DNA from: an uncultured Peptococcaceae bacterium
GTDB lineage: Bacteria; Bacillota; Desulfotomaculia; Desulfotomaculales; Desulfallaceae
DNA: 38,551 nucleotides
Assembly: GCA_913064925.1 (NCBI GenBank)
Contig: CAJYBN010000001.1
Span: 1 to 38,551, forward strand
Reading direction: 5' to 3'
Positions 5,333 through 34,196 of this stretch are shown piece by piece. The position numbers were made by a program, and so were the translations under genes. How positions within the stretch are numbered: position 1 is the stretch's first letter; each line of letters starts with the position of its first letter. The notes under the pieces were generated by a model that was given only the letters and a program-made list of their open reading frames with translations, was not told where the DNA came from and searched no databases.

Positions 5333-6223
5333 TTATCTCACCGGCAGGTAGCCGACCTCCTCTACCATGGCCTGCCCTTCGGCGCTGAAGCCGAAATCCA
5401 AAAACGCCTTGGCCAAGCCCGCTGGTTCACCGATGGTGTACATGTTTAAATCGCGCACAATGGGATATTGGCCGGCTTTGGCATTTTCAATGGATGGCTC
5501 CACCGCCGGGCCGCCGTCCTTGCTGACGCGCACGGCTTTTACGCTATTATCCACGAAAGCCAGGCCGCAGTAACCGACGGCGTATTCCTCCTGGGCCACC
5601 GTTTTGACCATGGCAGCGTTGGAAGCGGTTTTCCTGCTGTTTTTGGTATATTCCTCATCGTTAAGCACAAATTCTTTAAAAAAACCGTAAGTGCCCGAGC
5701 TGGTGTCCCTGGTGTAAACGTAAATGTCCGCGTCCGGGCCGCCCACTTCCTGCCAGTTGGTTATTTTACCGGTGAAAATGTCCTTGATTTGCGCCATGGT
5801 CAGCTCTTCCACCGGGTTATTGGGATGGACGATCACGGCCAGGCCGTCGCGTCCCACTACAAATTCCTTGACGGTACCGTTGATCTGGTTGCGTTCCTTA
5901 TCTTTTATTTTGCGGGAAGCCATGGCGATGTCGGTGGTCCCGTTAATGAGCGCCGCAATGCCGTTGCCCGATCCGGTACCGGTGACCACTATATCCACGC
6001 CGGGGTGCTTGGCATTGAACGCTTCCGCCCAGGCCTGGGCCACGGGAGCCACCGTGGTAGAGCCGTTAAGGTTCAGCGTGCCGCTTAGTTCTTGCCCGCT
6101 GCCCGGGCTTTGTTGATTGTTCTGTCCGCCATTTTCCGCGTTTCCGCCGCAGCCGGCTGCCAACACGACTATCAGTGCCAGCAATAGTACTAACGGGAAT
6201 GCTTTCAGCAATTTTTTGCGCAT
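5333..6223 (-). CDS. pstS: Phosphate ABC transporter substrate-binding lipoprotein PstS
   Basis: Signal peptide with lipobox LAAGC. GSTTVAP and TGTGSGNG motifs are typical of PstS. AAAGGAGAGG RBS. Confidence 0.9.
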   Translation of the reverse strand: MRKKLLKAFPLVLLLALIVVLAAGCGGNAENGGQNNQQSPGSGQELSGTLNLNGSTTVAPVAQAWAEAFNAKHPGVDIVVTGTGSGNGIAALINGTTDIAMASRKIKDKERNQINGTVKEFVVGRDGLAVIVHPNNPVEELTMAQIKDIFTGKITNWQEVGGPDADIYVYTRDTSSGTYGFFKEFVLNDEEYTKNSRKTASNAAMVKTVAQEEYAVGYCGLAFVDNSVKAVRVSKDGGPAVEPSIENAKAGQYPIVRDLNMYTIGEPAGLAKAFLDFGFSAEGQAMVEEVGYLPVR

Positions 6224-6272
6224 TTACATAACCTCTCCTTTCGTTTTTAGGGCGCGCCCTTTTTCAGCACCA

Positions 6273-9192: not shown

Positions 9193-9948
9193 TTAACCGA
9201 ATCTACCGGTAATATAATCTTCTGTGCGTTTTTCCCGGGGTGCCGTGAATATGGCGGTGGTTGTATTATATTCGATTAATTCACCGTTGAGAAAAAAACC
9301 GGTATAGTCGGACACCCTGGCGGCCTGCTGCATGTTGTGGGTTACTATTACTATGGTGTAATTCTGTTTAAGCTGGTGGATCAAGTCTTCCAGTTTGGCC
9401 GTGGAAATGGGGTCCAGGGCCGAGGCCGGTTCATCCATGAGAATTACTTCCGGTTCCACCGCCAGCACCCTGGCTATGACCAGCCTTTGTTGCTGGCCTC
9501 CCGAGAGGCCGAGGGCCGATTTGTATAACCTGTCCTTGACTTCGTCCCAGAGGGCGGCGGCCGCCAGGCTTTTATGCACTATTTGCTCCAGGTCCGTTTT
9601 CTTTTTTATACCGTGGATGCGCGGCCCGTAAGCCACGTTGTCAAATATGGACATGGGAAATGGGTTGGGCTTCTGGAAAACCATGCCCACCTTCTTGCGC
9701 AGGGCCACCGGGTCCACCCGGGGATCGTAAATGTTTTTACCGTCCAGCAATACTTCCCCTTCCACTCTAGTGCCCTCGATCACCTCGTTCATGCGGTTCA
9801 AGGCGCGCAGGAAAGTGGACTTGCCGCAGCCCGACGGGCCGATCAGCGCCGTGACGGCATTTTTTTGTATCGGCAGGTCAACGCTGTACAGGGCCTGGAA
9901 GTTTTTGTAGTACACGCTTAGTTTTCTGGTTTCCATTTTGTTTTCCAT
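9193..9948 (-). CDS. pstB: Phosphate ABC transporter ATP-binding protein PstB
   Basis: Walker [10 protein letters not shown], signature LSGGQQQR, Walker [12 protein letters not shown]. Confidence 0.95.
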
Positions 9949-12271: not shown

Positions 12272-14521
12272 GTGAAACAGTTGCAGTTGTATGCCGACGT
12301 GCTGGTGGAGGTGCCGGGAGTAGGGAGCGACCGGACATTCCAGTACCGCGTGCCGGAAGCCCTGGCCGGGTCTTTGCGGTTCGGCCACCGCGTGCGGGTG
12401 CCCTTCGGCGGGCGGCGGGTAACCGGTTTCGTGGTGGGCTTTAGCCAGCGGCAGGTGGTAGATAATGTCAAGGAAATTATCGAACTTGTGGACAACCGGT
12501 CGTTTTTCCGGGAGGACCAGCTGGACTTGGCCAGGTGGATAGCCAGCTATTACCTGTGCGATACTGTACGTGCCCTGCACGCCGTCATCGCTCCGGTATT
12601 AAAGAAAACCACCGGCAAGCGCATAACTCGTTACTATTGCCGTGTTACACCTGAAAAGCTTGAAGAAATGCGCCGGGAAATGGGCCGCCGGGCGCCTAAA
12701 AGCTTGGCGGTGCTGGAAACGGCGCTGAAAAACCCGGGGCTAAGCCGGCGCCACCTGGCAGCGCTGGCGGGCGCATCGCCATCGGTGGTGGATAAACTGG
12801 CGGCCGGTAAATGGCTGCGCGTGGAAAGCGAGATTCCCCTGCGCGATCCTTATCCTTCGCCGCCGCCCGGCGCGGCCGCGGCCGGGGTCCGGCTGACCGC
12901 CGAACAGGAAAAGGCAGTGCGGGAAATAAACGCCGCGCTGCGGGCGGGCGGTCACCGGGTTTTTTTGCTCCACGGGGTGACCGGCAGCGGGAAAACAGAG
13001 GTTTACTTGCACTGCATCGAACAAGTTTTACGCGCGGGGCGCCAGGCCATCGCGCTGGTGCCGGAAATATCCCTGACTCCGCAGATGGTCAAAATTTTCC
13101 GGGCCCGCTTCGGCAGGTCCATGGCGGTACTGCACAGCCGCATGTCCGATGGTGAAAGGTACGATGAGTGGCGGCGCATCGAGGACGGCGAGGCGCCGGT
13201 GGTGCTGGGGGCGCGTTCCGCCGTGCTGGCACCGGTCCCCGACCCGGGCCTGGTAATTATCGATGAGGAGCATGAATGGTCATATAAGCAGGAGGAAACG
13301 CCCCGGTATCATGCCCGGGCCGTGGCCCTGTACCGAACCCGGAAGAGCGGGGGTATGCTGGTGCTGGGCAGTGCAACACCTTCCCTGGAATCTTACTGCC
13401 GGGTTCTGCCCGGCGGGGCATATAAGCTGTTAAGCCTGCCCAAAAGAATTGAAGGAAAGGGTATGCCTGAGGTGCGCGTTGTGGATATGCGCCAGGAACT
13501 GCGGGCGGGTAACGGCGGCATTTTTAGTTTCCTGCTGCAGCGCAAACTGCAAGAGAGATTACAAAAGAAAGAGCAGGCCATAATCTTCCTCAACCGGCGG
13601 GGATTAAACACCCTCGTTGTCTGCCGGGAATGCGGCATGGTATTGAAGTGTTTCCGGTGCGAGATTTCCCTGACCTACCATATGGACGGGCTGCTTCGCT
13701 GCCATTATTGCAATTATACCGTTAAAGCCCCGCAATTTTGCCCGGACTGTGGCAGCCGCCAGATAGGCTACTTCGGCACGGGCACGCAGCGGGTGGAAAA
13801 AGAACTGCAGGCCTTGGTGCCCGGAGCGCGCGTTTTACGCATGGACGCCGACACCACCACGCGCAAGGGTTCGCATCAGCGTATACTGGACGCTTTTAGC
13901 CGGGGCGCGGCCGATATTCTCGTGGGTACGCAGATGATAGCTAAGGGGCTGGACATTCCCGGCGTGACCCTGGTCGGTGTAGTAAATGCCGATATTTCAT
14001 TGCACATGCCCGACTTTCGTGCCGGGGAGCGCACCTTTCAGCTGCTGGCCCAGGTGGCCGGCCGTACGGGACGCGGGAAAACCCCCGGCGAAGTGCTGAT
14101 CCAGACTTACACGCCGGAACATTACGCCATACAGACTGCCGCCCGGCACGACTACCATACATTTTTCAGGCGCGAGCTTTCGCTGCGCAAATCCATGGGA
14201 TACCCGCCTTTTTCCAAAATGGTCCGCCTGCTGGTGCACGGCGCGAGCGAAAGCGCGGTGCGGGAGGCGGCCTTGAACTTGCGCGAGTTGCTGGACGGCT
14301 TGGTAAAAGGCGCGGATCGGGATAAAATATACATAGTGGGACCGGCGCCGGCACCCGTGGCCCGGTTAAAGGGGGTTCATCGCTGGCACGTAATTACCTG
14401 GAGCCCGGACTACCATGGACTGCGCCGGGTTATGGAGGAGTTACGGCGCCGCACGGGTTTTAACCTGCCCGGCAAAGAGCTGTCCCTAAGCGTTGACGTC
14501 GATCCCATGAGCATTATGTGA
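12272..14521 (+). CDS. priA: Primosomal protein N' (replication restart helicase PriA)
   Basis: Walker A GVTGSGKTEV and DEEH box. Cys-rich zinc-binding insert CRECG...CFRC...CHYC...CPDCG. The start could instead be TTG 12281. Confidence 0.95.
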   Translation: MKQLQLYADVLVEVPGVGSDRTFQYRVPEALAGSLRFGHRVRVPFGGRRVTGFVVGFSQRQVVDNVKEIIELVDNRSFFREDQLDLARWIASYYLCDTVRALHAVIAPVLKKTTGKRITRYYCRVTPEKLEEMRREMGRRAPKSLAVLETALKNPGLSRRHLAALAGASPSVVDKLAAGKWLRVESEIPLRDPYPSPPPGAAAAGVRLTAEQEKAVREINAALRAGGHRVFLLHGVTGSGKTEVYLHCIEQVLRAGRQAIALVPEISLTPQMVKIFRARFGRSMAVLHSRMSDGERYDEWRRIEDGEAPVVLGARSAVLAPVPDPGLVIIDEEHEWSYKQEETPRYHARAVALYRTRKSGGMLVLGSATPSLESYCRVLPGGAYKLLSLPKRIEGKGMPEVRVVDMRQELRAGNGGIFSFLLQRKLQERLQKKEQAIIFLNRRGLNTLVVCRECGMVLKCFRCEISLTYHMDGLLRCHYCNYTVKAPQFCPDCGSRQIGYFGTGTQRVEKELQALVPGARVLRMDADTTTRKGSHQRILDAFSRGAADILVGTQMIAKGLDIPGVTLVGVVNADISLHMPDFRAGERTFQLLAQVAGRTGRGKTPGEVLIQTYTPEHYAIQTAARHDYHTFFRRELSLRKSMGYPPFSKMVRLLVHGASESAVREAALNLRELLDGLVKGADRDKIYIVGPAPAPVARLKGVHRWHVITWSPDYHGLRRVMEELRRRTGFNLPGKELSLSVDVDPMSIM

Positions 14522-14550
14522 AGACAATGAAATAAGGAGGCAAAAACCAG

Positions 14551-15006
14551 TTGGCCGTATACGTTATCGTGCAAGCCGAAAACAAAGTGCTGCGGGAAAA
14601 AGCACAGCGCGTTACCAAACTGGGTCGCAATATAATTAAATTGCTGGACAACATGCGGGATACCATGTACGCCAACAAGGGGGTGGGGCTGGCCGCCCCG
14701 CAAATCGGTATTTCCAAGCGGGTTATTGTTGTAGATATAGGTGAAGGGTTGGTAGAATTGATTAACCCGGAAATCTTGGTCGCCGCTGGCGAGGAAACCG
14801 GTACGGAGGGCTGCTTGAGCATTCCCGGCGTGGTGGGCGAGGTAACCCGCTCGGCCTGGATCAGGGTAAAGGGGCTGAACAGGAAAGGCAGCGAAACGGA
14901 AATCGAGGCGGAAGGTTTTTTTGCCCGGGCGCTGCAGCACGAGATAGATCATCTAAATGGTATTTTATTTACCGATAAGGCCAAGAATTTAAGAAAAGTC
15001 GAGTAA
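14551..15006 (+). CDS. def: Peptide deformylase
   Basis: The three PDF motifs are present: [21 protein letters not shown] start after AAGGAGG. Confidence 0.95.
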
Positions 15007-18265: not shown

Positions 18266-19312
18266 ATGGCAAATCTCCCTAGCTTGCGGGACCTATCGCT
18301 GGCGGAACTGAAACAAGTGACGGCCGACCTGGGTTTGCCGGCGTACCGTGCATCCCAAATTGCCGGTTGGGTGCACCGCAAAGGGGTCGCTTCCTTTGCG
18401 GAAATGACCAGTTTGCCCCGGGACGTGCGGGAAATGCTCTCCCGGCGGTTTAGAGCCGGCGGCTTGAACGTGGCCGGGAAAAAGGTTTCTCGCGACGGCA
18501 GCACGGTAAAATACCTGCTGGAGCTGGCCGACGGGCAGACGGTGGAAAGCGTGCTGATGCGTTACCGGTACGGTTATTCGGCCTGCCTGTCCACGCAGGT
18601 GGGGTGCCGCATGGGCTGCCGGATCTGCGCGTCGGGGCTGGAAGGGCTGGTGCGTAACCTGACGGCGGGGGAAATAATCGACCAGATTTGGGCTATGCAG
18701 CGTGATTCCGGCTGCCGGGTGGGGCGCGTAGTGTTGATGGGCTCGGGCGAACCGCTGGATAATTATGCGGCCACGATAAAATTCTTGACGCTGGTGAATG
18801 CGCCGTACGGGCTTAATATCAGCCACCGGCACGTTACGCTGTCCACCTGCGGCATAGTGCCGCGCGTATATGATCTAATGGAACTACGCCTGTCCATCAC
18901 TTTGGCGGTTTCGCTGCACGCTCCCAACAACGAGCTGCGCAGCAGGCTGGTGCCGGTGAATAAAGCGTACCCGCTGGAAGAACTGCTCCCGGCATGCCGC
19001 GCGTACGCGGAAACTACGGGCCGCCGGGTTTCGTTCGAGTACGCCCTGCTGGCCGGCGTCAACGACTCGCAGCAGCACGCGGGCGAACTGGCCGGTATTT
19101 TACGCGGTATTCACTGCCACATCAATTTATTACCCGTCAATCCGGTACCTGAACGCGGGTGGCGGCGCAGCGCCGCGCGGAACGTACGCGCTTTCCGGGC
19201 GATGCTGGAACGGGCCGGGTACCCGGTCACCGTGCGCCGCGAATTGGGGCTGGACATTGACGCCGCCTGCGGCCAGCTGCGGCGGCGCGTCAATGCGAGG
19301 GGTCGGGAATGA
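18266..19312 (+). CDS. rlmN: 23S rRNA/tRNA (adenine-C2)-methyltransferase RlmN (radical SAM)
   Basis: CX3CX2C cluster CRMGCRIC, GSGEPL, and the C-terminal CGQL cysteine. Confidence 0.9.
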   Translation: MANLPSLRDLSLAELKQVTADLGLPAYRASQIAGWVHRKGVASFAEMTSLPRDVREMLSRRFRAGGLNVAGKKVSRDGSTVKYLLELADGQTVESVLMRYRYGYSACLSTQVGCRMGCRICASGLEGLVRNLTAGEIIDQIWAMQRDSGCRVGRVVLMGSGEPLDNYAATIKFLTLVNAPYGLNISHRHVTLSTCGIVPRVYDLMELRLSITLAVSLHAPNNELRSRLVPVNKAYPLEELLPACRAYAETTGRRVSFEYALLAGVNDSQQHAGELAGILRGIHCHINLLPVNPVPERGWRRSAARNVRAFRAMLERAGYPVTVRRELGLDIDAACGQLRRRVNARGRE

Positions 19313-30406: not shown

Positions 30407-31063
30407 ATGCAGGAAAGTCAACCCCAAGTCAACTTGGCCAGATATATCACCATTGCCGTGGATATAGCCACCCGCATAGTACGCGGCGAGTATAGAATCG
30501 GGCAAAAGCTTTTCGGCAGATCCACTCTGGCCGGCAAGTACAACGTTTCGCCGGAAACCATCAGGCGCGCTCTAACGCTGCTGCAGGAGCGGGGTATCGT
30601 GGAAGTCATGCCCGGCGTGGGCGTGGTGGTAAAATCCGACCGCGCGGCTCACGAATACCTGGCGGATTATAACCAAAAAAAAGTGTTGTTTGACATCCAG
30701 GAGCGGCTGACGGAGCTGCTTAAGCAAAGGGAGAAGTTAAATTATGAAATAGACCGCCTTACCAACCAGTTGTTGGATTACACCTTTAAAATGGCGGGAA
30801 GGCTGCAAAAGCTGGAAGAGATAAGCGTACCTGCTAATTCGCCGCTGCTGGGCAAGTCGCTGGCCGAGGTGGGTTTCCGGGCCCGTACCGGCGCCACTGT
30901 TTTGTCCATCTACCGCCAGGGGCAAGAAATTTTGTCCCCGGAAGCCAATACCAGCCTACAGGCGGGGGACGTACTGCTGGTTGTCGGAACCAATGAGTCG
31001 GCCAAAATGGTGCAGCAGCTGGTCGAAGGGGGCATCATTTCAGGCGATGTAACGGAACATTAA
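30407..31063 (+). CDS. GntR-family transcriptional regulator with C-terminal TrkA_C (RCK_C) ligand-binding domain
   Basis: wHTH STLAGKYNVSPETIRRALTLLQERGIVEVMPGVGVVV. A coiled linker. TrkA_C-like GKSLAEVGFRARTGATVLSIYRQGQEILSPEANTSLQAGDVLLVVG. Confidence 0.75.
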   Translation: MQESQPQVNLARYITIAVDIATRIVRGEYRIGQKLFGRSTLAGKYNVSPETIRRALTLLQERGIVEVMPGVGVVVKSDRAAHEYLADYNQKKVLFDIQERLTELLKQREKLNYEIDRLTNQLLDYTFKMAGRLQKLEEISVPANSPLLGKSLAEVGFRARTGATVLSIYRQGQEILSPEANTSLQAGDVLLVVGTNESAKMVQQLVEGGIISGDVTEH

Positions 31064-31095
31064 AAAGCCTTGACGTGCAAGCGCAAGGCTTTTTT
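31062..31095 (+). terminator. Rho-independent terminator closing the cheW...gntR gene string
   Basis: Arms AAAAAGCCTTG (31062-31072) / CAAGGCTTTTT (31084-31094), 11-nt loop, T-run. Confidence 0.8.
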
Positions 31096-31201
31096 AATGT
31101 ATGCCGGGCTTGTGTTTATTATTGAGTTTATTTATCATTTAGAGATTATTTTTTGCATTCCGGTTGTAATGTGTTTCTGGTACTACGCTGCGCAACAGGC
31201 C

Positions 31202-31462
31202 ATGAATGAAATCAAGTGGTTCAAAAAGTGGAAAAAAGTGTTTAAAGGCGTTTCTTCCAGGCTGTTGCGAAAAGAATTTCCGGAGTTGAAAAAGGAGCTG
31301 TGGGGCAATAGCTTCTGGAGTTCCAGCTACTTCATCGCTTCCACCGGCCAGGTAAGTTTGGAAACGCTAAAACGCTACGTGGAGGAACAAAGCCATGAAA
31401 GGCCGTCCAAAATCAAAAAAGAAAGTGCAATAGGTCAAAAAGAAGGAATTCACCGGCAATGA
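31202..31462 (+). pseudogene. tnpA: IS200/IS605 Y1 transposase TnpA, C-terminal fragment only (HUH half deleted)
   Basis: FKGVSSRLLRKEFPELKKELWGNSFWSSSYFIASTGQVSLETLKRYVEEQ aligns by eye with the C-terminal third of IS608-type TnpA, including the catalytic-Tyr helix. No HUH motif is present. The 5' boundary is approximate. Confidence 0.7.
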
Positions 31463-31475
31463 GCAGTACAAAAGC

Positions 31476-33056
31476 GTGGTAATCACTACGCCCAAAAAAG
31501 CACTCAATAAGGTAAAGCTGGACGAGCTTTATAAAGTTGATACACTCCACGCTCAGGCCGTCAACGCCTGGATTGACAAATGGTACGACCATTTAGAGAT
31601 GGTGGAAAAAATTTTATCCGGCAGGGCCACCACCACGATGCAGAAACAGACCATCGACATCGGCCTGCCTTCTGCTTATATCCAGATCGCCGGCAACCGG
31701 ATGCTGGACATCCTTCGAGAGCACTACCTGGCCGTCCAGGATAAGATAGCTTCGGATGTCTGGAAGGAAGAAAAACTGTCCGCGGAATACAAATTCGTCT
31801 ATGCTACCTTCGCCCGGAATTACGTCATGTTTTCCCGGTTTATAAGCGGGAATTTTGCTGTAGACGACGTGGTTGATTCCTGGGCTGTCGGCGAAAACGC
31901 GTACCTGCAAAAAGCTACCGAGTGCTACAAAAAGCTTTCCGATCAAGAAAAAGCCCAAATACCTGCCAAAATTAAAGAAAAGTTTTCTGAAATCAGGTCC
32001 GTTTGGAAGAAGCCTTTCTTTAAAGGCGGCAGCATTCTTCTTGACTACCGGGTGTTTTCCGTAAGCGAGGCGGAAGAAACGACAGAGTTCAACCTCTGGG
32101 TGGAAATTACCTCTACTGAGCCGTACAAGCGCGTAAAGATACCGTTCTATGTAACCGGCAAAAAACTTGACATGCTGGAAACCCTTTTCCCTGGCTGGCA
32201 GAACACCAGCCGGCGCAAGGGGTTATTGGTCATCAGGGAAAGGCACGTTCACCTCTCCATCCCCGCAGAGAAGGAAAAAACCGAACCCGTGTCCCCCTTA
32301 GCTTACGTCGGCTGCGACGTAGGTATAAGCTCTCCCATCAGCCTGCACAACGGTAGCCGGTTCGGGAGAAACCTCAACGAGCTGGTCAATGAAGACTACG
32401 ACGAGTATTTGCGCCTGCAGGCGATTAGGAACAAGTTTCGCAGCCTCAAAGAAAAAGCAGAGAAGCGGTACGAAATCACCAAAGACCTCGTGGTCCGGGA
32501 AAAACTCCAGCGCAAGATAGCCGAGTACGAGCGCCACCTCTCCGACCACCGGTGGGCAGAACTTAGAAGGAAAATTAAGGCCACCGTAAAAACCGAAATC
32601 GGCCGGGCGGTGAACCTCATGCTCGAAGAACTTCCCCTTTCGAACCACGTGGTCATCGTTCTGGAAGACCTTTCCGAAATGGACGCCAGTGGAGCAAGAC
32701 GCTCCAAAAGAGGGTGCTTTGACCTCTCCGTCTGGGCCAGGAGGGAACTCCAGGACCACATCAAGCACGACCTGGAGTGGCGGGGCGGCAAGGCTATCTA
32801 CGTCGTCCCAGACTATACTAGCCAGAAGTGTTACGAGTGCGATTACGTGGACAAAGACAACCGGCGTGGGGATGTTTTCCACTGCAAAAGGTGCGGCTAC
32901 ACCGACCATGCCGACGTGAACGCTGCTAAAAACATCAAAGAACGTTTCTTTGATGAGGAAATCAATCAACTGGCCAAAAAATATTCTTGGAACAAAAATT
33001 TGCGCCGCGAAAAGATAAAGGAACTGCTCTTGCAAAGAGCAAACCAGGCGGCGTAA
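31476..33056 (+). CDS. tnpB: TnpB / Cas12-like RuvC nuclease (IS605 OrfB family), 526 aa, intact
   Basis: RuvC-I D281 (AYVGCDVGISS), RuvC-II E397 (VIVLEDLSE), zinc ribbon CYEC...CKRC, RuvC-III D480 (HADVNAAKNI). GTG start has no clear RBS. Upstream in-frame stop at 31431-31433. Confidence 0.8.
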   Translation: MVITTPKKALNKVKLDELYKVDTLHAQAVNAWIDKWYDHLEMVEKILSGRATTTMQKQTIDIGLPSAYIQIAGNRMLDILREHYLAVQDKIASDVWKEEKLSAEYKFVYATFARNYVMFSRFISGNFAVDDVVDSWAVGENAYLQKATECYKKLSDQEKAQIPAKIKEKFSEIRSVWKKPFFKGGSILLDYRVFSVSEAEETTEFNLWVEITSTEPYKRVKIPFYVTGKKLDMLETLFPGWQNTSRRKGLLVIRERHVHLSIPAEKEKTEPVSPLAYVGCDVGISSPISLHNGSRFGRNLNELVNEDYDEYLRLQAIRNKFRSLKEKAEKRYEITKDLVVREKLQRKIAEYERHLSDHRWAELRRKIKATVKTEIGRAVNLMLEELPLSNHVVIVLEDLSEMDASGARRSKRGCFDLSVWARRELQDHIKHDLEWRGGKAIYVVPDYTSQKCYECDYVDKDNRRGDVFHCKRCGYTDHADVNAAKNIKERFFDEEINQLAKKYSWNKNLRREKIKELLLQRANQAA

Positions 33057-33197
33057 CTCAGGTACGTATGAAGCCGTAAGGTTCGCCTCCAGCCGGGATG
33101 AAAGAAATGGACCGTAGCGGAGGCGCCCTGGAATGAGGAACGCGGGCGGAAGGTTTTTAAAACCGGAAGCCCCTTCCTTCAGGAAGGGGAGGCTTCA
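33057..33197 (+). ncRNA. Candidate omega-RNA (reRNA) scaffold 3' portion / IS right end
   Basis: Non-coding tail with hairpins 33084-33090/33119-33125 and 33166-33177/33182-33196. Its position relative to tnpB matches known TnpB guide-RNA loci. The scaffold probably starts inside the tnpB 3' end. Confidence 0.35.
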
Positions 33198-34196
33198 CCC
33201 GGCTGCACCACCGTGCTGTACGAGGGGACGCCAGACTACCCGCGCAAAGACATGTGGTGGGACGTGGTCTCCCGCAACAAAGCCACGGCACTGTGGCTGT
33301 CTCCCACCGGCGTGCGCGGCTTGATGCGTCTGGGCATTGAGGAGGCTCGCAAGCATGACTTGAGCTCCGTAGAGAGGATTTTCTGCGCCGGTGAAGTTTT
33401 AAACCCGCCGGTCTGGTCCTGGCTGCAGGAGCAGGTTTTTGAAAATAAAATACCGGTAATGGATCACATGTGGCAAACAGAAACCTCGGGCCCCATTTTC
33501 GCCAATCCGTACGGCCTGGGCATGATACCCATCAAGCCCGGTTCGGCGCATGTCCCGGTGCCCGGCGTGGTGGCCGAGGTGCTGGACGAAAAGGACGGCA
33601 AACCCGTACCGCCCGGAGGTAAGGGGGTAGTGGTCATCAAAAAACCGTTTCCGGGGCTGGTTTCCACCCTTTGGGGCGATCCCGAAGGTTACCTGTACAA
33701 TTACTGGGAGCGCCTGCCCGTTACCAAGGGCATGTACTTGTGCGGCGACGCTGCCTCCTTTGATGAAGACGGCTATATATGGTTTGCCGGGCGGTCCGAC
33801 GAGGTGATCAAAATCGCTGCCCACCGCATCGGTACTGTGGAAGTGGAAAGCGCTTTAATTTCGCACCCCGCCGTGGTGGAGGCCGGGGTTTCCGGCGTGC
33901 CCGACGAATTGCGGGGCGAGGTGGCCTGTGCCTTCGTAGTGCTGAAGCAGGGGTACGAGCCTTCGGAAGAAATGAAGCAAGAGCTTATCGCCCACGTGCG
34001 CAAAACCATGGGCGCCATCGTGGTTATGCGGGATATTCAGTTTGTCAGTTCGTTACCGAAAACCCGCAGCGGTAAAATCATGCGGCGGGTCATGAAGACC
34101 CTTTGGCTGGGCAAAGAATTGGGCGACCTGTCCACCATTGAGGAAGAGGTTTCCATTGGAGAGATTTATGACGCCATCAAGAGAATGAAAGGGTAA
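33198..34196 (+). pseudogene. acs: Acetyl-CoA synthetase / AMP-forming acyl-CoA synthetase, 3' fragment (N-terminal ~half missing)
   Basis: ...CTTVLYEGTPDYP, WQTETSG, YLCGDAASFDEDGYIWFAGRSDEVIKIAAHRIG and LPKTRSGKIMRR match the C-terminal half of Acs. The P-loop/AMP-binding N-terminal part is not in the window. The frame is still open for 327 codons. Confidence 0.8.

Follow-up and report, generated by a model that had tools for sequence, protein, structure and literature searches.

A conserved IS605-type right end and probable TnpB omega-RNA scaffold in a decayed element at a broken acs gene of an uncultured Peptococcaceae bacterium

We analysed a 38,551-nucleotide (nt) stretch of DNA, referred to here as the window (positions 1 to 38,551 of contig CAJYBN010000001.1, GenBank assembly GCA_913064925.1), from an uncultured Peptococcaceae bacterium whose genome is represented by a 2.7-Mb assembly of 305 contigs with 95% completeness. 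The region of interest opens on the left with a GntR/TrkA_C regulator gene, which stops at 31063 and is followed by a terminator and an AT-rich stretch. Next come an open reading frame (ORF) holding a fragment of the transposase gene tnpA, the gene tnpB, a non-coding tail of 142 nt (33057–33198) and the 3′ part of the acetyl-CoA synthetase gene acs. The features of the element and of acs given below are all on the plus strand. The tail, which is kept in 13 homologous loci, is the right end of an IS200/IS605-family element of the IS605 type (tnpA-tnpB) and very probably the scaffold of the TnpB omega-RNA, in what is now a dead remnant.

The tnpA fragment (31242–31462) corresponds to the 3′ half of an IS200-type Y1 transposase gene, as identified by Pfam PF01797 (3.1e-16; profile positions 70–121 of 121) and by alignments to the tnpA of homologous locus L013 and to other tnpA genes; within the surrounding ORF (31070–31462), the Y1 profile match is confined to the last 52 codons, that is, to the C-terminal part. 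The tnpB frame (31395–33056; 553 codons) matches NCBIfam NF040570 with 105 bits (cut-off 100) as well as the Pfam Cas12f1-like TNB domain. Its stop codon occupies 33054–33056, exactly where it had been placed by an initial annotation made from the sequence alone, and PGCTTVLYEGTP begins at 33198. The acs gene is present in two pieces. A 71-nt 5′ remnant (31175–31245; about codons 28–51, ...AAQQAMNEIKWFKKWKKVF) ends in TTTAA (31241–31245) at the left breakpoint, and the 3′ part (33199–34196) covers the 649-amino-acid (aa) orthologue from about codon 317 onward in a frame that is still open (TIGR02188, 355 bits, profile positions 307–627), with 93% identity to intact orthologues that share its gene neighbourhood.

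Since the tail is a single copy in its own genome, by DNA search and by covariance model alike, and a model search found no further right end of this family there, its boundary could not be defined from within that genome. When 18 genomes belonging to the same family were searched at the protein level (E ≤ 1e-30), the sole match was in the genome of the window itself, and relatives were taken from wider collections. Here, a protein search returned about 25 close full-length TnpB relatives of 530–560 aa, and scans of genome and metagenome collections yielded 20 loci; the tail alignments drew on 13 loci. The tail was found downstream of tnpB in every homologous locus that has sequence at this place. 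A covariance model built from the 13 tails (R1) scored the window tail at 126 bits and was used to align 28 distinct copies. Full-length R1 matches occur in 5 of 150 other sampled genomes of the same order (a sixth genome has a weak match only), and in two genomes of the order the tail is multicopy, with 18 and 10 R1 matches.

Among 27 distinct copies, the conserved block stops after ...GGCTTCAC, which is position 33198 in the window; the shared end of the block reads ...GGAGGCTTCAC, and the window boundary falls at 33198/33199. All but one of these right ends (26/27) finish in TTCAC or differ from it by a single base (TCCAC, TTTAC), and this transposon-encoded terminal motif, at 33194–33198 in the window, forms the final bases of the element. 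Beyond the boundary the bases are unrelated, with all four represented at the +1 position. The same boundary is reached from the acs side: DNA alignments between the window and ten intact acs orthologues begin only at 33199 (CC GGC TGC ...), and the orthologues read ...CTGCTCA, ...CTGCTGA or similar in the bases preceding the junction. An acs hidden Markov model alignment that began at 33165 was rejected as an over-extension, with orthologue protein matches beginning at query residue 2 (G, 33201) and DNA matches at 33199. The initial annotation had put the end of the element at 33196–33197, subject to acs homology not extending upstream of 33166. No such homology occurs, the first shared base being 33199, and the proposed site was approximately right, with the exact base displaced by 1–2 nt from the true end at 33198.

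Both hairpins previously noted in the tail lie where the initial annotation had located them. Hairpin 1 (33084–33125) pairs CGCCTCC (33084–33090) with GGAGGCG (33119–33125) and is extended by 33092–33093/33117–33118 around a 23-nt loop that differs between subfamilies. Hairpin 2 (33166–33197), the subterminal palindrome, is made up of GAAGCC-CCTTCC (33166–33177), a TTCA loop (33178–33181), GGAAGG (33182–33187), GGA (33188–33190) and GGCTTC (33191–33196), with a core of 33170–33177/33182–33189. Its earlier description as a 12-bp interrupted hairpin spanning 33166–33196 fits the data, but not uniquely, as an 8-bp stem (33170–33177/33182–33189) plus a long-range helix fits equally. In that arrangement, the terminal GGCUUC pairs with UGAAGCC (33069–33075) in place of its local partner GAAGCC (33166–33171), and the resulting helix (33069–33075/33191–33197) encloses both hairpins and closes the whole tail. 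Pair counts favour neither partner.

Folded alone, the 160-nt segment that begins with the tail is of unexceptional stability (z = −0.94), whereas the longer 274-nt stretch 32925–33198 has z = −2.68, with 2 of 200 shuffles folding as well. As the tail is not exceptional when folded alone, the test of chance had to be comparative. Across the aligned copies, 97.7–98.4% of the cells at paired positions form standard pairs (98.4% on 28 distinct sequences), compared with 43–56% when the partners are slid. Changes on both sides were found at 8 pairs, and the observed values were reached by none of 500 shuffles. Hairpin 1 has 100% of its cells paired and 3–4 pairs altered on both sides (for example, A-U 20 : G-C 7), and in the hairpin 2 core two pairs are altered on both sides (C-G 12 : U-A 10; G-C 17 : U-A 2). 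G-U pairs are seen only when the sense strand is read. RNAalifold and direct pair counts back three elements, namely hairpin 1, the hairpin 2 core and a helix formed by the terminal GGCUUCA (33191–33197). Alignment with the 3′ flanks of tnpB homologues, which had been suggested as a check, therefore shows conservation together with covariation.

Two further features emerged when these hairpins were compared with relatives. The hairpin 1 loop (33094–33104) holds GGGATGAAAG, a 10-mer nearly identical to GGGGATGAAAGG on the 3′ side of the left-end hairpin (for example, L013:3455–3470) and confined to the long-loop subfamily. In the tnpA-less copy L016/L022, loss of the 5′ half of hairpin 2 leaves a right end (L016:5570–5659) that still has GGGGAGGCATTCAC at the boundary; this end is probably unusable by TnpA, though the remaining scaffold is kept.

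The conserved structured region spans the 3′ end of tnpB and the right end and is followed by a variable segment (alignments A3–A5). Within the coding region, a 10-bp hairpin at 32933–32955 (CATCAAAGAA/TTCTTTGATG) displays GC/AU/GU exchanges (RNAalifold pairs 33–38/46–51 of alignment A3), is also present in the single-sequence fold and is probably an upstream part of the omega-RNA scaffold. In a comparison with an 82%-identical homologue, the last 46 tnpB codons contain zero amino-acid changes, and their synonymous divergence is 0.60, versus 1.26 elsewhere in the gene. In ISDra2, the RNA bound by TnpB corresponds to the 3′ end of tnpB and the adjoining right end, with its last ~16 nt coming from the flank (PMC8612924), and both the covarying helix and the reduced synonymous change in the last ~46 codons agree with this overlap between omega-RNA and tnpB 3′ end. 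Judged by this layout, the tail is very probably an omega-RNA scaffold. As RNA, the tail plus roughly the last 90–130 nt of the tnpB ORF would constitute the TnpB guide-RNA scaffold (omega-RNA/reRNA), with a 3′ guide transcribed from any DNA that lies beyond base 33198. In the single-stranded DNA form, the site bound and cleaved by Y1 TnpA would consist of hairpin 2, including the TTCA loop, and of the TTCAC at the terminus. The initial annotation had proposed both roles; the right end is borne out by the conserved boundary, and the scaffold, which has the expected layout, is very probable.

The relatives supply the parts of the element that the window copy has lost. In L013, L021, L023, L024 and L025, tnpA is upstream of tnpB and overlaps or directly precedes its start (other copies are without tnpA); the Y1 tnpA and tnpB are adjacent and in the same orientation in relatives and in the window fragment, as is characteristic of the IS605 type. 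The left ends of relatives carry a C-rich hairpin resembling hairpin 2, mostly with a TTCA loop. Similar left and right subterminal hairpins are thus seen in relatives; the window copy has the right hairpin only, its left end being absent. TTTAAC precedes the left end in 20 of 20 distinct copies, and the flanks further upstream are unrelated. TTTAAC is the target motif, or transposon-adjacent motif (TAM), of this family. A fixed target motif on the left is accordingly paired with a sharp right boundary at the terminal motif. This is the IS200/IS605 layout, in which the left flank supplies the TAM, the right terminus carries a transposon-encoded motif and palindromes lie in subterminal positions (10.1101/2023.03.14.532601).

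The family also includes five gene-less mini-elements of 269–547 nt (L032:138–399; G027:C165 ~14210–14590; G043:C189 ~18300–18663; G027:C176 ~5907–6262; G043:C199 ~9306–9852), which consist of a left end and a ~115-nt tail; one of them additionally retains the last 86 nt of the ORF. They resemble palindrome-associated transposable elements (PATE-like), and TTTAAC flanks every left end. Gene-less mini-elements with omega-RNAs have been described for Geobacillus IS605 elements (10.1101/2023.03.14.532601). The window's own genome contains other IS605-type elements or remnants, L106 (G000:C48:11108–14123), L105 (G000:C17), L107 (G000:C175) and L108 (G000:C170). The left ends of L105–L108 have a common motif, CCGCCGGGAAGTCCCC...GGGGATGAAAGGCGG, and are flanked by TTTAAC in three of the four and by TTTGAC in one. 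The element on C48 (L106), which has a similar left end and a TTTAAC flank, carries an intact 137-aa tnpA and a different tnpB of the classical OrfB type.

The copy in the window is a defective, decayed and immobile remnant, with no left end, half a tnpA and a stop codon in tnpB. No homology to the tnpA of relatives is seen before ~31242; the copy is missing its left end as well as the 5′ half of tnpA, which contains the HUH region, and the join between acs and tnpA sits in a TTAA microhomology. The tnpB genes of relatives start 27 codons upstream of the window GTG, and the same ATG is present at 31395 (MKGRPKSKKKVQ...). An in-frame TAG occurs at codon 13 (31431–31433), and the remaining frame is open. 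The longest open tnpB ORF, starting from GTG 31476 (31476–33056; 526 aa), is the portion downstream of this TAG, and a similar internal start is annotated for a small number of relatives in the databases. The RuvC residues D281/E397/D480 and the two CxxC pairs of the zinc ribbon are intact (19-sequence alignment A1), and the ratio of nonsynonymous to synonymous divergence (dN/dS) is 0.086 against the 82%-identical homologue, showing that tnpB evolved under purifying selection. With a frame that is otherwise open and this dN/dS, the inactivation, if real, would be recent.

Three relatives share the gene order ABC-ATPase, CBS/ACT, GntR/TrkA_C, an intact acs of 648–656 codons, a two-helix membrane protein and opuAC/opuAB (the CBS/ACT gene went undetected in one of these relatives, as did the ABC-ATPase gene in one). 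Because this order matches the window flanks, the element occupies the place of the acs 5′ half. By blastn, the acs 5′ stub is 76–83% identical to the acs 5′ ends of the three syntenic relatives, and its terminal TTTAA falls exactly at the only TTTAAC of the closest orthologue (93% identity, 1950-nt gene); TTTAAC is present at the stub-end position in 2 of 12 orthologues. Some 250 nt, comprising the promoter-proximal region and codons 1–27, are missing before acs codon ~28 relative to orthologues, which indicates that the locus underwent several deletions. In the relative L050 (7830–7950) and at the equivalent places in L051 and L052, a conserved ~40-aa ORF (MGFKDLEKKARDY...) followed by a terminator lies between GntR/TrkA_C and acs; no such ORF was noticed at the matching position of the window.

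Whether the tail has a role as RNA, in addition to being a right end, depends on how its conservation is explained. Hairpin 2 resembles the left-end hairpin, the TTCA loop being mostly common to both, as recognition by TnpA predicts, and all stems are equally possible in top-strand DNA. Moreover, an Rfam scan of 30500–34000 at E ≤ 1 returned nothing relevant, its sole match being a spurious small nucleolar RNA on the minus strand (E 0.087). Each of these observations would also be expected if the tail were a DNA signal only, that is, a right end recognised by TnpA and without RNA function, in a clade whose TnpB is guided otherwise or is not RNA-guided. We regard this as improbable. IS608-type right ends characterised so far need only the subterminal hairpin and ~10 nt, yet here conservation and covariation reach ~115–140 nt upstream, through hairpin 1 into the ORF, and it is because they extend so well past the subterminal hairpin that we argue for an RNA role. 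In addition, the whole ~115-nt tail is kept by the mini-elements, and all TnpBs tested so far use a right-end-derived RNA (PMC8612924). The G+C-rich stems directly past the stop codon could alternatively be read as a transcription terminator or attenuator of tnpB; with no T-run after either stem, an empty plus-strand terminator scan of 33057–33216 and a conservation that breaks off sharply at the edge of the transposon and not at a terminator, we give this explanation almost no weight. Several points do count against a right end that doubles as an omega-RNA scaffold. Covariation cannot tell an RNA hairpin from a same-strand single-stranded DNA hairpin used by TnpA, and the 160-nt segment is, as noted, unexceptional on its own. 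No promoter-like sites were found on the plus strand between 30900 and 34500, and a strong terminator (31062–31095) is located upstream of the element. Owing to the premature stop, the full-length TnpB partner may not be made here, and at the acs junction no simple model yields TTCAC/CCGGC without an extra indel. Lastly, that the omega-RNA is made and bound by TnpB is something we infer throughout from sequence, for its transcription and processing as much as for its binding.

A related question is how the right end came to abut acs at ~codon 317. On balance, we favour an original insertion at the TTTAAC of acs codons 51–52, where the 5′ stub ends, followed by deletions that would have taken out the left end along with half of tnpA, as well as acs codons ~52–316. 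The present right-end/acs junction is probably secondary, because orthologues have no TTTAAC there, while the stub ends at the only TTTAAC of the closest orthologue. A history in which 33198/33199 is the primary junction of an off-target insertion at ~codon 317, and one deletion at the TTAA microhomology took acs codons 52–316, the left end and the tnpA 5′ half, would be economical, requiring a single insertion plus a single deletion; the left junction indeed falls in this 4-nt microhomology, and the right end is intact to its final base, as an insertion would leave it. We nevertheless find it doubtful, as TTTAAC occurs in 20 of 20 left-end flanks and the orthologues read CTGCTCA, CTGCTGA or similar at this place, and a TTTAAC set before CCGGCTGC would introduce an in-frame TAA into acs. 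It would also make the position of the stub, which ends at the single TTTAAC of the 1950-nt orthologue, a coincidence of ~0.5% for a random breakpoint in the first 951 nt. Two simple routes to the right junction were rejected: canonical insertion via a synonymous CTT TTA ACC variant and deletion via a TCAC microhomology both predict TTCAC-CGGC, one C fewer than the observed TTCAC/CCGGC, and the off-target insertion at ~codon 317 falls short by one C as well. The extra C may reflect a genuine indel or a fault in the assembly. Both abnormal junctions sit on TnpA cut positions: the 5′ stub stops at the TAM (TTTAA 31241–31245), the expected start of the left end, and the final base of the right end (33198) runs without microhomology into the acs 3′ part. 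This raised the idea, unlikely in our estimate, that the locus is the scar of one abortive TnpA excision, in which illegitimate joining or template switching took the place of normal strand transfer and rescued the two cleaved 3′-OH ends. If this were true, one event would have deleted the left end and half of tnpA, removed 800 bp of flanking DNA and left the omega-RNA with a different guide. An insertion at codons 51–52 with later deletions, an inferred order of events, remains our preferred history, and the presence of the element explains the broken acs at this conserved locus.

The predicted guide (16–20 nt, CCGGCTGCACCACCGTGCTG, 33199–33218) is defined by its position alone and is acs coding sequence. 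The initial annotation had described a guide reading into acs, which holds for the position and not for a guide produced by canonical insertion, there being no TTTAAC. Directly before the guide in this copy stands TTCAC instead of the TAM, and orthologous acs genes likewise have no preceding TTTAAC, so that the guide of this copy does not correspond to the TAM-flanked target expected of an empty donor site. The search for the guide next to a candidate TAM that had been envisaged came back empty, as the 20-nt sequence (33199–33218) has no match besides itself in the 2.7-Mb assembly at fewer than 3 mismatches, and hence no TTTAAC-flanked target. An omega-RNA made today would bear the guide CCGGCTGCACCACCGU... 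and would meet no TTTAAC-flanked target in the cell. An unmatched guide fits a stranded remnant and has no bearing on the family as a whole; it illustrates how, once an element has decayed, its right-end guide may come to be directed at a sequence that is no legitimate target.

The closest known counterpart in organisation is ISDra2 of Deinococcus radiodurans (PMC8612924), with which the present family shares the tnpA/tnpB overlap, the RuvC triad and zinc ribbon of TnpB, a TAM at the left flank that equals the TnpA target and, by the reasoning given above for this clade, a scaffold to which the 3′ end of tnpB and the right end both contribute, with a guide formed by the flank past the boundary. 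The two differ in the size of TnpB (408 aa in ISDra2 versus ~550 aa here, where ~150 extra N-terminal residues match no Pfam family) and in the TAM (TTGAT versus TTTAAC). The scaffold sequence is unrelated to that of ISDra2 and is not in Rfam, and the window copy is defective. When a profile of the ~550-aa clade (alignment A1; window protein 31476–33053) was compared with known structures, its C-terminal half was closer in sequence to Cas12f (8j12, 7wju, 8dzj; E ~4e-18) than to ISDra2 TnpB (8bf8; E 3e-8). The clade may be close to an ancestor of Cas12f. As far as we can tell from the libraries searched, it is uncharacterised. The analysis defines for this clade both element ends, TTTAAC as the TAM, TTCAC as the terminal motif and a probable scaffold supported by covariation, and these definitions can serve directly as inputs for testing it as an RNA-guided nuclease, by way of intact relatives instead of the present copy.

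The ISGst IS605-family elements of Geobacillus stearothermophilus (10.1101/2023.03.14.532601) likewise have a left TAM, a right-terminus motif, top-strand subterminal palindromes and an omega-RNA that overlaps the right end (as we propose here), as well as PATE-like gene-less mini-elements that keep the ends and the omega-RNA, and most of their copies are without tnpA. They differ in TnpB clade and end sequences, and the present system is known from sequence alone. IS608 of Helicobacter pylori shares the Y1 HUH transposase, hairpins near both ends and insertion 3′ of a fixed target. In IS608, cleavage occurs ~10 nt after the right hairpin, in the peel-and-paste paradigm without target duplication; cleavage of this type, 3′ of a short motif, is predicted ~9 nt after the right hairpin here. 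The target and terminal motif are TTAC and TCAA in IS608 and TTTAAC and TTCAC in the present family. From these comparisons, the family appears to be a known kind of system that would work like the TnpB/omega-RNA systems of ISDra2 and ISGst, rather than a new kind, with the copy in the window as its fossil.

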